Assembly: GCA_963700145.1 (NCBI GenBank) | Contig: OY969474.1 | Span: forward strand, 224,001 to 288,000 | DNA: 64,000 nucleotides | Source of the DNA: an uncultured Acidobacteriota bacterium | GTDB lineage: Bacteria > Acidobacteriota > Thermoanaerobaculia > Multivoradales > UBA5704 | Direction: 5' to 3' | Part shown: one piece after another, positions 23,189 to 28,948 of the stretch | How the letters are laid out: each line of letters starts with the position of its first letter | Position numbering within the stretch: the first letter of the stretch is position 1 | Notes under the pieces: model-generated | The model's input: the letters and a program-made list of their open reading frames with translations, nothing else | Database searches by the model: none | Told to the model about the DNA's origin: nothing | Made by a program: the position numbers and the translations under genes

Positions 23189-23844
23189 GCGAGGCGAGTC
23201 GCCCGCGCCTGCGCGAGCCCTACCCGGCGGCGCCGCGCCCGTACCGGCCGAGCCTCGCCGAGCGGCTCTACCTGCCGCTCATTCCGGGGCTGTTCGTCAC
23301 GCTCAAGCACTTCCTGCGCAACCTCCTCCGCCGGGGCGACACGCCGTACACGATCGAGTACCCCGAGGAGCGCCGCGCCTACAGCCACCGCTTCCGCGGC
23401 CACCACATCCTGACGACGCGCCCGGACGGCTCGGTGCGCTGCGTCGCCTGCTACCTCTGCGCCTGGGCCTGCCCGGCGGAGTGCATCCACATCGAGGCCG
23501 GCGAGCACCCGGACGTCAACATCGAGAAGTACCCGCTGGTCTACGAGATCGACATGCTGCGCTGCATCTTCTGCGGCTACTGCGTGGACGCCTGCCCGGA
23601 AGAGGCCATCATCATGTCCAACAACTACGACATGGCCTACTTCAACCGCGAGCAGTCGATCGTCGGCAAGTCCGACCTGATGAAGCCGTTCACCTTCGAC
23701 GAGGACCAGCTCGGCTACCGGCCGCGGTATCCTGAAGAGGACGCCCAGCGCGCCCGCATGCGGCGCGAGGCCTTCTCGATCGTCGAAGCCGCCCGCGCCG
23801 CCCAGGAGCGCGAAGAGCTGGCGGCCCGGGCCGGCGGCCGCTAA
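23185..23844 (+). CDS. nuoI: NADH-quinone oxidoreductase subunit I
   Basis: ATGA overlap with nuo[21 protein letters not shown] and [12 protein letters not shown]. Confidence 0.93.
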
Positions 23845-24797
23845 CCGCCCCCCTCCCCCTCACCGGCAGAGGCCGGGACGGCGTCGAGCACCGCGTCGTC
23901 GAGCGGCAGAGCGAGCGCGGCCAGGTTCTCCTCGAGCTGGGCCGCCGACGTGACGCCGAGCAGGACGCTCGAAAGGCCCGGCTGCCGCAGCAGCCAGCGC
24001 AGCGCGAGCTGGGCGGGCGAGACGCCGTGGCCCTTGGCCAGGTCCGCCAGGCGCCGCGCGTAGGCGATCGCCTCGGGTCCGGCGTTCTCCCGCAGCCAGG
24101 CGTGGGCCTCCAGACGCGTGTCGGCGCCGATCCCCTGCGCGTACTTGTTGGTCAGCACGCCGGAGGCCAGCGGGCTCCAGGCGAAGAGCCCGAGCCCGGT
24201 CTCCGCGAGCACCGGCAGCACCTCTTCCTGGACGCGCCGCCGGACCAGCAGGTTGAACTGGCTCTGCTCGACGATGGGCGCGTGCCATCCCGCCGCCCGG
24301 CAGAGCTCGACGGCGCGGCGGATCTCGGCGGCGGGCCATTGGCTGGTGCCCCAGTAGAGGAGCTTGCCGGCCCGGCAGAGGTCCTCCATCGCCCGGGCGG
24401 TCTCCTCGATCTCGGTCTCGGGGTCGTGGCGGTGGCAGAAGTAGATGTCGAGGTGATCGAGCCCCAGCCGGGCCAGCGACCCTTCGACCGACTCGACGAC
24501 GTGCTTGCGCGACAGGCCGCGCTCGGTCACGTGCGGGCCGGTGGGGAAGAAGGCCTTGCTGGTGACGACGATCGCGCTCCGCGGCAGCGCCTTGAGGATC
24601 GGCCCCAGCAGCGCCTCCGCCTCGCCTTGCGCGTAGACGTCGGCGAGATCGAAGAGGTTGATCCCGGCGTCGAATGCGCGGCGGACGAGCGCCGCCGCCT
24701 CGCCGCGGTCGCGGAGCTTGGCGCCGAAGGTCAGCCAGGCGCCGAGACCGAAGACGCTCACCTTGAGACCCGACCGGCCGACGCGGCGATATTCCAT
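23841..24797 (-). CDS. Aldo/keto reductase (Kv-beta-like)
   Basis: MEYRRVGRSGLKVS...GLGAWLTFG, FDLADVY, GLSRKHV, YWGTSQW, WSPLASG. Confidence 0.92.
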   Translation of the reverse strand: MEYRRVGRSGLKVSVFGLGAWLTFGAKLRDRGEAAALVRRAFDAGINLFDLADVYAQGEAEALLGPILKALPRSAIVVTSKAFFPTGPHVTERGLSRKHVVESVEGSLARLGLDHLDIYFCHRHDPETEIEETARAMEDLCRAGKLLYWGTSQWPAAEIRRAVELCRAAGWHAPIVEQSQFNLLVRRRVQEEVLPVLAETGLGLFAWSPLASGVLTNKYAQGIGADTRLEAHAWLRENAGPEAIAYARRLADLAKGHGVSPAQLALRWLLRQPGLSSVLLGVTSAAQLEENLAALALPLDDAVLDAVPASAGEGEGGG

Positions 24798-24808
24798 TGT
24801 TTCGGTCC

Positions 24809-25978
24809 TCAGGCAGACCGCAGCACGCGCTGCACGGCCTCCACGTAGCTCAGCACCCCGTCGCGCGTGAGCATCGTCGCCGACGGCTCGTAGCCGCCTT
24901 CCTCGTAGATGTGTGGCAGCGGCAGGTAGCCGACGTAGTCGTTGGCATAGCTGACCGGCAGGCAGGCGGCCGGGTCCGCGACGCAGCCGCGGATGCGGTC
25001 GCCCGTCTCGGCCAGGCACTCTCCGCCGAGCGCGGCCAGTGCCACCGGGCCGATCCTCAGCACCTGCGCCTCGACGCGCATCCCGCCGTCCCGCGCCGTC
25101 CGCCGCCGCTGTGCGACGGTGAGGTAGGGGTGGTCCTTGCCTTCGAGCAAGCTCTCCGCGCTGGCGGCGGACAGGGCGACGGACGGCTGGCCCGCCGCAG
25201 TCCGCACCGCCGCGAGCGCGGCGTCCGCCACGGCGCGGGCGACCTCCTCCACCTGCGCGTACGTGCCCCCGGTCCACACCCGCGGGTTGTTGTCCCCGGC
25301 GGCGCCGTTCAGGAAGAGCCAGGCGCCCCCGGTCTCGCGCTCCAGGGTCGTGGTCAGCACGCCGCACCAGTCGCCGCTGACCATCAGGCTGTCGCCGCCG
25401 AGGACGACGGGGTGCATGGCGGCGTGCACGAGCCGCGCGATCGGGGCGCCGCCGGACGCCGCGAACGACAGCACCGCCAGGCGCCGGTCGACGGGTCCCT
25501 CGGGGTTCGGCTCGAGCCGGACCGCCCCGTCGCGGGGGTGGCGGCGGTTGACCGCCGTGTCGATCGTGCCGTGACCGACGCGCAGCTCGCAGTCTTCGAG
25601 GCGGTGGGCGGCGCGGAAGACGGTGCCGGCGACCTGGTGCACCAGCGTCGTCAGCCACCAGTCGCTGATCGGCGGGGCGAAGGCGTACCAGTCGAGCGTG
25701 TCCGGGCCGGAGTGGGTGTGCGTACACGCCACCAGGACGTGCGCGGGCGGGATCCCGGTGAGCCGCTCGACGGCCGCCCGGATGCGCGCGACGTGGTCGC
25801 GCTCGAGCCAGAGCAGATCGCAGGAGACGACGGCGTAGCGCCGGCCGTCCTGCTCCAGGACCAGCGCCCGGGCGTGGAGCTCGTCGGCGACGTCCACGGC
25901 GATGCGCCGACCCCGGTGGCCGGCGAGCTGCACGGGCAGGGGCGGGGTGACGACGGTCCTGGCGGCCCCGGCCTTCAG
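24809..25978 (-). CDS. Neutral/alkaline ceramidase N-terminal-domain family hydrolase (probable CTG start)
   Basis: LKAGAARTVVTP, DELHARALVL, CTHTHSGP, AMHP, SGDW, GAAGD, YLP...GGYE. A GGAGG sits 7 nt before a CTG that overlaps the upstream TGA. Confidence 0.8.
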   Translation of the reverse strand: MKAGAARTVVTPPLPVQLAGHRGRRIAVDVADELHARALVLEQDGRRYAVVSCDLLWLERDHVARIRAAVERLTGIPPAHVLVACTHTHSGPDTLDWYAFAPPISDWWLTTLVHQVAGTVFRAAHRLEDCELRVGHGTIDTAVNRRHPRDGAVRLEPNPEGPVDRRLAVLSFAASGGAPIARLVHAAMHPVVLGGDSLMVSGDWCGVLTTTLERETGGAWLFLNGAAGDNNPRVWTGGTYAQVEEVARAVADAALAAVRTAAGQPSVALSAASAESLLEGKDHPYLTVAQRRRTARDGGMRVEAQVLRIGPVALAALGGECLAETGDRIRGCVADPAACLPVSYANDYVGYLPLPHIYEEGGYEPSATMLTRDGVLSYVEAVQRVLRSA

Positions 25979-28238: not shown

Positions 28239-28291
28239 CCGGTCTCGGTACTCCCGGGGGGCCTCGCTCCGCGGCTCGTCGCGACGATGGC

Positions 28292-28483
28292 CTAGGGAGA
28301 CCGTCGGCCGAACCCCGCGAACTCGGCCAGCACCGCGGCTTCCGCGAGCGCGGCCTCCGCGGCGGCGACCTGGAAGGCGGCCGCTTCGGCGACGAGTGCC
28401 AGCGGCTGGTCCTTGTTGCCGAGGGCGTTGCGATAGAGCTCCGCCAGCTCACTGACCGTGGGGACCGAGAGCGCGATCTTCAT
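28292..28483 (-). CDS. 63-aa Ala/Glu-rich peptide (candidate precursor, or frameshifted N-terminus of the ligase)
   Basis: AAGGAGG RBS and ATG, GC-rich third codon positions; MKIALSVPTVSELAELYRNALG...AEAAAFQVAAAEAALAEAAVLAEF. Confidence 0.55.
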   Translation of the reverse strand: MKIALSVPTVSELAELYRNALGNKDQPLALVAEAAAFQVAAAEAALAEAAVLAEFAGFGRRSP

Positions 28484-28498
28484 CTGAAGCCTCCTTGC

Positions 28499-28948
28499 CT
28501 ACAGCGGGCAGTTGATCGAGAGCAGGAAGCCGTCCGGGTCGGTGACGGTGATCTCGCGCACGCCCCAGGAGCGGTCGGTGGGGCCGTCGGTGAGCGTGCC
28601 GCCGGCGGCGCGGATGCGCTCGGCCAGGGCGTCGACGTTCTGCGAGGTCTCGCCGTGCAGGCGGATGCCGACGCCCTTCTTGCGGTCGCGCCCCTTCTTC
28701 CAGTCGTCCTGCGTCAGGTAGAGCTCGCAGCTCCCGGCCTTGAGCTGGACGCCCTGCAGCACGCCGTCCGCCTCCCAGTGCTCCCCCTCGACGAACCCGA
28801 GCACGTCGCGGTACCAGGCGAGGCTGCGGCCGATGTCGTCCACCGTCAGCGTCGGCGTGACCGAGCGCAGCCGCAGCGTCTCGGGCTGCCGCCGCTCGCG
28901 GTGCTCCCGCGGCGCCGCGCCACCACCGCTGCCTCCCTCGTTGGCCAT
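28499..28948 (-). CDS. VOC/glyoxalase family protein
   Basis: LTVDDIGRSLAWYRDVLGF and WGVREITVTDPDGF. Confidence 0.88.
   Translation of the reverse strand: MANEGGSGGGAAPREHRERRQPETLRLRSVTPTLTVDDIGRSLAWYRDVLGFVEGEHWEADGVLQGVQLKAGSCELYLTQDDWKKGRDRKKGVGIRLHGETSQNVDALAERIRAAGGTLTDGPTDRSWGVREITVTDPDGFLLSINCPL

Follow-up and report, generated by a model that had tools for sequence, protein, structure and literature searches.

This account concerns a compact group of genes in a 64,000-nucleotide stretch of DNA ("the window," positions 224,001 to 288,000 of contig OY969474.1, GenBank assembly GCA_963700145.1) from an uncultured soil bacterium of the Acidobacteriota, class Thermoanaerobaculia. A sequence-only reading had described six co-oriented, tightly spaced genes here, and six minus-strand open reading frames (ORFs) do occupy 23841-28948. 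In order, they are a VOC/glyoxalase-fold gene (28499..28948; PF00903, E 1.3e-17), a 63-aa small protein (28292..28483), a PaaK-fold ligase of ~450 aa (26940..28295, its conserved N-terminus starting at about 28295), a 315-aa radical S-adenosylmethionine (SAM) enzyme whose gene begins with GTG (25975..26922), a ceramidase-family amidohydrolase of 389 aa (24809..25978), and an aldo-keto reductase of 318 aa (23841..24797). The spacing from the VOC gene to the reductase is 15 nt, a 4-nt overlap, 17 nt, a second 4-nt overlap, and 11 nt, and the domain calls made from the letters alone hold up in Pfam, profile, or structural comparison, with the corrections given below. We propose that the genes from the small ORF to the reductase form one co-transcribed cassette, which differs from the corresponding site in congeners by a single indel; on the comparisons given below, the small protein and the ligase are its conserved core.

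The small ORF carries the strong ribosome-binding site already remarked on (AAGGAGG, 7 nt upstream of the ATG), and its GC content is 0.89 at third codon positions versus 0.48 at second positions, a pattern typical of coding DNA. Its AlphaFold2 (AF2) model (pLDDT 82.7) consists of a helix at residues 10-22, which holds a Leu-Tyr-Arg (LYR) motif, a turn, and a second helix at residues 26-58 with the AEAA units noticed in the sequence-only reading, three in number; their Glu residues are 33, 43, and 48. Homologues of the protein are P0004 (98%), P0005 (70%), P0006, and P0007. When six short members are aligned, the invariant residues include L16, Y17, and R18 of the LYR helix and E43, and conservation extends over the whole length and is not confined to a leader.

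The small proteins belong to no Pfam or NCBIfam family. A Pfam search with nine of them at E ≤ 10 gave scattered single matches, none of them to Complex1_LYR, and an ESM Atlas search with the 63-aa protein returned no usable match. A hidden Markov model (HMM) of seven short members found nothing further among 4704 ORFs, the loci of other PaaK-like genes included. The small proteins are free of Cys, apart from one residue in the second peptide of locus L028, and their C-termini are not conserved; Pup-like tagging was rejected for the latter reason.

The ligase has no Pfam match at E ≤ 0.01. A profile of ten family members, however, finds PDB entry 4r1l at 9.6e-29, the best PDB chains being PaaK-type, and the AF2 model (pLDDT 86.6, pTM 0.86) shows the ANL/PaaK fold in two domains, preceded by a helical microdomain at the N-terminus. 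Foldseek aligns this model over its full length with PaaK1 (2y27_B, E 4.3e-22, TM 0.63/0.66) as best match, and further matches are BT_0428, PaaK2, ClxA, AjiA1, and NatL2. Named-family cut-offs are not reached (TIGR02155, 35.2 vs 646.3 bits; DVU_1553, 65.1 vs 300; BagE/FevW, 45.1 vs 800), and by these scores the ligase is a PaaK superfamily member that belongs to none of those families. Among the ten members T87 and G89 (P-loop), Y293, G296, D297, and G317 are invariant, R318 nearly so, and no conserved C-terminal Lys was seen; the corresponding core motifs of ANL enzymes are called YxxGD and GR.

A word-indexed search found two close homologues alone, P0002 (67%) and P0003 (61%), both beginning with Met at the aligned N-terminus. 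The family as a whole is not tiny: a profile search among 1.84 billion representatives (50% identity) recovered 622 proteins at E ≤ 1e-30, the best 150 nearly all full length, yet it has neither a Pfam model nor a functional name, and the ten members that we looked up are called "PaaK-like adenylate-forming protein" or "hypothetical." In sampled genomes it is rare. It was found in 4 of 401 genomes of the class, in 5 of 401 in the phylum sample (two of them strong), and in 2 of 301 from the order of an Acidobacteriaceae metagenome-assembled genome (MAG); among 391 genomes from the phylum of an Acidimicrobiia MAG there was none at E ≤ 1e-40, with four candidates scored per genome. A scan of viral contigs gave no ligase relative.

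We inspected the DNA around seven other ligase homologues, of which six had usable flanks (L022, from a metagenome scan, is 5'-truncated, being cut 67 nt before the ligase gene, and so is uninformative upstream). A related small ORF adjoins the ligase homologue in five of these six, at ligase identities of 29-38%. In L013, L026, L027, and L031 the small protein has an LYR-type N-terminus (LYK in L031), followed by Glu or Asp among small residues; L021 is a degenerate case, in which the N-terminus matches less closely and a long repeat of Ser, Ala, and Glu is present. The homologues therefore do cluster elsewhere and a conserved peptide does stand beside them, two of the things that the sequence-only reading had offered to be judged by. 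In addition, the P0005 small ORF and the P0002 ligase each lie on a single 2997-nt contig, presumably one and the same.

The number of Glu-motif units varies a great deal: three here, about 25 of the AAEPL type in L027, and at least eight in L021. In L027, where the small-ORF stop overlaps the GTG of the ligase and an unrelated HemN-like radical SAM gene lies directly downstream of it, the repeat units match each other at only 72-78% in DNA, so the peptide units should be older than recent slippage. The L027 product (10250-10975, genome G299) is a 241-aa protein in which an LYR-type N-terminus precedes the pentapeptides. L028 (10522-11083, genome G412) looks different again, with two paralogous peptides of 50-52 aa encoded upstream of the ligase homologue, each ending in one Glu motif; this homologue is more distant and has an extra N-terminal region, and the peptides resemble a classical precursor pair.

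L031 (8128-13159, genome G708) holds a radical SAM gene, the ligase, the small protein, and a class-III aminotransferase, between a tyrosine-recombinase-type integrase and a tRNA-Leu(CAA). A VirB4/TraC-like gene lies next to this cassette. Judged by these neighbors, the cassette is riding on an integrative element in G708.

For the third gene, the radical SAM assignment is secure (PF04055, 52.7 bits vs a cut-off of 29.5), and C15, C19, and C22 of the CxxxCxxC motif (residues 15-22) are invariant in 14 family members. The sequence-only reading had called it a radical SAM/SPASM enzyme with extra C-terminal Cys. The CxxxCxxC motif and the extra Cys are there, but a full SPASM domain is not: PF13186 scores 20.6 bits, below its cut-off of 21.5, and C228, C246, C289, and C292 are the only auxiliary Cys invariant in those members. 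SPASM domains have two auxiliary clusters and a seven-Cys motif, and the pattern here points to one auxiliary cluster in a Twitch-like C-terminal domain. None of the six proteins matches a PqqD domain or RiPP recognition element (RRE; RiPP being a peptide that is made by the ribosome and modified after translation) in Pfam or NCBIfam, and a motif that starts at residue 15 leaves no room for an N-terminal RRE.

In a profile comparison with PDB, BtrN and BlsE come out best, followed by GDGT-MAS, SkfB, and CteB; BtrN and BlsE are small-molecule enzymes. The best NCBIfam match is MftC (TIGR03962), at 53.7 bits vs a cut-off of 265. About 50 homologous clusters (36-93% identity) are almost all metagenomic. 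The same family stands beside the ligase and the LYK protein in G708, at 36-38% identity, so co-clustering extends to this gene too. It is missing from the genome of L013 and from G016, G344, G299, and G412, in which other radical SAM families gave partial matches to the core and nothing more, and it is therefore best regarded as an accessory of one ligase subclade, which shares a conserved C-terminal motif. No match to the family lies on a contig of the length of P0003's (90525 nt), a weak negative given that the cluster tables list the longest contig only.

The last two genes are the least widely tied to the core. The ceramidase-like protein exceeds the PF04734 cut-off (54 bits vs 32.1) and aligns with PDB 2zws at 7.5e-7, including the THTHSGP stretch. 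Only the catalytic domain is present: the protein has 389 aa vs 646-688 aa in solved enzymes, lacks the C-terminal tail domain of the full-length architecture, and reaches 29.4 bits vs a cut-off of 1200 for NF041649. The aldo-keto reductase matches PF00248 over residues 17-307 (242.4 bits, E 6.9e-72) and stays below the cut-offs of TIGR01293 and PRK09912. It is the shared indel and the shared, tightly packed operon that connect these two enzymes with the core.

That indel is best seen by comparison with relatives. NuoI and KorA, which are encoded in the flanks, share 97-98% identity with their counterparts in a genome of the same genus (G004) and 90-93% with those in G003. In G004 there are 7 nt between the stop codons of nuoI and the VOC gene (94% identical), and in G003 a 346-bp spacer separates nuoI from a VOC gene that is 79% identical; by blastn and tblastn, the small ORF, ligase, radical SAM, ceramidase-like, and aldo-keto reductase genes are all missing at this site in both. 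With five genes missing and the VOC gene retained, the block between the VOC and nuoI stops (23843..28496, no strand assigned) is one 4654-bp indel without spare intergenic DNA. More broadly, the ligase was found in none of four same-genus genomes, and the ceramidase-like gene in 1 of 40 relatives. Within the block GC is 0.72-0.77 vs 0.68-0.72 in the flanks, and a repeat scan of its ends detected no terminal repeats, high-GC chance matches alone.

Soil metagenome contigs also carry the block. One of 5985 nt covers 25800-28600 and differs by 152 substitutions and no gap, and contigs from three other soil studies cross the ligase junction with substitutions and no gaps. When 40 of 178 differences were scored, 25 fell at third codon positions and 27 were synonymous; on this sample, and given the gap-free contigs, the block appears to be under purifying selection.

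What might such a cassette do? The conservation of the pair, the expandable Glu motif, the interchangeable accessories, and the movement of the unit lead us to infer, tentatively and with less than even confidence, a peptide-templated pathway in which the small protein would be a covalent scaffold or carrier. Gene order, folds, and the conservation of the pair are observations, and each chemical step that follows is inferred from them. The ligase would dock on the LYR helix and spend ATP to form an acyl-adenylate, from which an amide or ester linkage to the scaffold would result; the likeliest site would be the gamma-carboxylate of Glu in an AEAA-type motif, joined to an amine substrate. The radical SAM enzyme, with its putative single auxiliary cluster, and the aldo-keto reductase would remodel the tethered group (an aminotransferase would take part in G708), and the ceramidase-family amidohydrolase would cut the amide and release the product. 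For chemistry on a small tethered group the accessory enzymes are well suited, namely the amidohydrolase and reductase here, the class-III aminotransferase in G708, and a radical SAM enzyme that has no RRE, one putative auxiliary cluster, and BtrN and BlsE as its best PDB profile matches; and one account of amino-group carrier protein (AmCP) pathways has aminotransferases acting on carrier-bound substrates (PMC11726168).

The most novel form of this proposal is one that we think rather unlikely to hold, namely that an ANL ligase adenylates the Glu of AEAA-type motifs on a dedicated helical protein, the motifs being tethers or cores for interchangeable accessories (radical SAM enzymes, reductases, aminotransferases, and amidases among them). 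An alternative chemistry, by analogy with NatL2, would be esterification of the invariant Tyr; NatL2 is described as forming an ester and not a coenzyme A (CoA) thioester (PMC7204872). The sequence-only reading had suggested a sequence of events, acylation or cross-linking and then hydrolysis and reduction, and this order is pure inference.

Several points weigh against the scaffold proposal and should be considered together. To our knowledge, adenylation of a side chain in a protein is without precedent among ANL enzymes, and the Cys residues and conserved C-terminus of LysW are missing. The LYR that is invariant in the six short members is not universal, as the G708 protein has LYK, and this protein matches the Glu motif 0 times, having D/E variants instead. 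The motif itself was defined after the sequences had been seen, so that shuffle statistics are illustrative only, and the seven-member HMM did not pick up the long proteins of L027 and L021; these were assigned by the short motif and their position. Ceramidase-like and aldo-keto reductase genes accompany the core only in this lineage, no homologue of either having been found around the other ligase loci. The reading frame of the ligase opens at 28448 and contains no ATG, GTG, or TTG before Met-67. A further point bears on the peptide-linked reading in general: the VOC gene, which the sequence-only reading had counted among the six genes of the operon, is retained beside nuoI in the block-less congeners; on that synteny it is a resident backbone gene and can only lend a promoter.

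Since homologues do co-cluster and a conserved peptide does accompany them, a pathway linked to a peptide, as first suggested, is a reasonable reading of the locus; it is weakened by the residency of the VOC gene, the lineage-limited ceramidase-like and reductase genes, and a radical SAM gene that the pair does without in five other genomes. The pair recurs in distant genomes and fits no described pathway, and the product is probably a modified peptide or a metabolite built on one. The sequence-only reading did not recognize the combination of enzymes from a described pathway; we likewise found no published description of it, a sequence look-up turned up no look-alike of the ligase, and full-text searches of the literature, judged by their listings and the openings of abstracts, showed no link between a PaaK-like ligase and a ribosomal peptide.

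Four known systems provide useful comparisons. The LysW/AmCP systems, with their LysX, LysY, and LysK enzymes of known roles, are built around LysW, a zinc-ribbon protein with an acidic C-terminal tail ending in Glu. The likeness is that of a small acidic protein beside an ATP-dependent ligase and redox, aminotransferase, and amidohydrolase enzymes that could act on a tethered substrate and then free it. There is, however, no relation in sequence or fold: the small proteins here are predicted to be hairpins without Cys or a conserved C-terminus, the ligase has the PaaK/ANL fold whereas the LysW ligase is an ATP-grasp enzyme, and there are possibly many attachment motifs here vs one C-terminal Glu in LysW.

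AjiA1, ClxA, and BagE/FevW are PaaK-type enzymes in which a hydroxyl or an amine, and not CoA, receives the adenylate. Together with NatL2 they share the fold of our ligase and are its nearest sequence neighbors, although identity in structural alignment is only 15-18% and every NCBIfam cut-off is missed; moreover, they join two small aromatic molecules and use no partner protein. The operons for pyrroloquinoline quinone (PQQ) and mycofactocin likewise bring together a short peptide, an amidohydrolase, an oxidoreductase, and a radical SAM enzyme that ends in an iron-sulfur domain, but the cassette has no PqqD/MftB-type chaperone and no conserved C-terminal Tyr or Glu-Tyr, and its conserved partner is a ligase. 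Lasso-peptide cyclases and graspetide ATP-grasp ligases use ATP to activate Asp or Glu side chains of a ribosomal peptide, and the activation of side-chain carboxylates on a leader-bearing peptide is what would be shared with the chemistry proposed here. The enzyme superfamilies (asparagine-synthetase-like and ATP-grasp) differ from ours, and those peptides hold a nucleophile where the repeats here do not.

The alternative that survives best is a classical RiPP, which we regard as doubtful. The LYR helix would be the leader and the AEAA units the core or cores, the ligase and radical SAM enzyme would modify the peptide, and the ceramidase-like enzyme would be a processing peptidase; with the same reservation, candidate reactions are ester or lactam formation, amidation of Glu, and, by radical chemistry, cross-linking or epimerization. 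In favor of this reading are a conserved N-terminal motif followed by repeats of widely varying copy number, the two short paralogous peptides of L028, and accessories that vary from locus to locus (the HemN-like enzyme in L027; methyltransferase, serine-hydrolase-like, and halogenase-like ORFs, recognized by eye, in L021), and in NCBIfam the radical SAM enzyme comes closest to maturases of peptides, MftC among them, even if far under cut-offs. Yet Pfam and NCBIfam searches show no RRE/PqqD domain, protease, or exporter in the block, the short members are conserved along their full length, and the radical SAM enzyme would have one auxiliary cluster only. Apart from Glu (and, in L021, Ser) the repeats contain nothing that could serve as a nucleophile, which makes intramolecular cross-links hard to draw.

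A pathway of ordinary small-molecule chemistry, in which the ligase activates a free acid, as PaaK-like ligases do, the radical SAM enzyme, amidohydrolase, and reductase work on free metabolites, and the small protein binds the ligase non-covalently (as a chaperone, an activator, or a specificity subunit), seems to us improbable. It would agree with the solved nearest relatives of the ligase, which act on small aromatic or short acids, with the proximity of the radical SAM profile to BtrN and BlsE, and with the stable helical hairpin predicted for the small protein. The expansion of Glu units in L027 and L021, however, is hard to square with a binding subunit, and the L028 peptides keep the terminal Glu motif alone.

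Here, we must return to the missing start of the ligase gene. The start-less stretch (28097-28295) comprises 66 codons that are conserved in the family and make up three confident AF2 helices; its third-position GC (0.85) is coding-like, and the family residues are kept. Where P0002 has Met, the window has CTA, which overlaps the TAG of the small ORF (CTAG, 28292-28295), and by its letters this junction is the geometry of an ATGA-type coupled start. Met-67 has AAGGAG 3 nt upstream, although the hexamer also encodes conserved residues, and a protein begun there would lose the three predicted N-terminal helices and the conserved LPxxTK stretch. The ceramidase-like gene presents a similar picture: its expected start is a CTG overlapping the TGA of the radical SAM gene (CTGA, 25975-25978), with GGAGG 7 nt upstream, and the closest canonical start codon in frame, a GTG, lies within the radical SAM gene, 21 codons upstream.

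An assembly indel was considered as the cause of the missing start and rejected, because three independent contigs are gap-free at the junction and the ~40 nt that precede the conserved residues are free of canonical start codons in every frame. Translation may reinitiate at a non-canonical codon, a shorter ligase may begin at Met-67, or function may have been lost. Taken to its conclusion, the last would make this a decaying or silent cassette in which adjacency no longer signifies a working pathway; with a ligase that lost its start and, from Met-67, its conserved helices, a CTG as the expected start of the ceramidase-like gene, and no promoter or terminator space of its own, the block could suggest as much, but gap-free soil contigs that differ mainly at third codon positions and by synonymous changes, together with a start-less stretch that is still coding-like, leave this very improbable indeed.

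If the small protein is the covalent substrate of the ligase, the cassette would represent a family of peptide-templated pathways not described before, whose class-defining enzyme and scaffold family would both be new. The ligase would then be the first ANL enzyme to act on a protein side chain, and repeat expansion to about 25 units would multiply the output per scaffold. The chemistry of the Acidobacteriota is little explored, and the cassette could yield ANL-on-protein chemistry, a reaction of a one-cluster radical SAM enzyme, and, from soil Acidobacteriota, a new natural product. At five genes and 4.65 kb it is small enough for direct synthesis and testing in E. coli to be feasible.

A few smaller observations concern individual loci and the flanks. 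In L021 (11420-13108, genome G016) the ORF resembling a flavin-dependent halogenase, upstream of the repeat protein, turns to low complexity about halfway along while another frame continues the homology, and it may contain a frameshift or an assembly error. In the window, the only promoter space upstream of the block is 28949-29022, ahead of the VOC gene. No terminator-like site was found in 23600-29200, an Rfam scan of 23500-29400 gave 0 matches, and the aldo-keto reductase stop on the minus strand overlaps that of the convergent nuoI gene on the plus strand (23841-23844); with no terminator-like site and overlapping stops, transcripts of the cassette would continue into the nuo operon as antisense RNA.

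The VOC-korA/nuoI intergenic neighborhood is an indel hotspot. In G004 (L046, 272-1998), about 1.7 kb that is not present in the window lies between the VOC gene and korA. The spacer between nuoI and the VOC gene in G003 (L047, 126-471) is made of short, imperfect repeat units and resembles a repetitive extragenic element.

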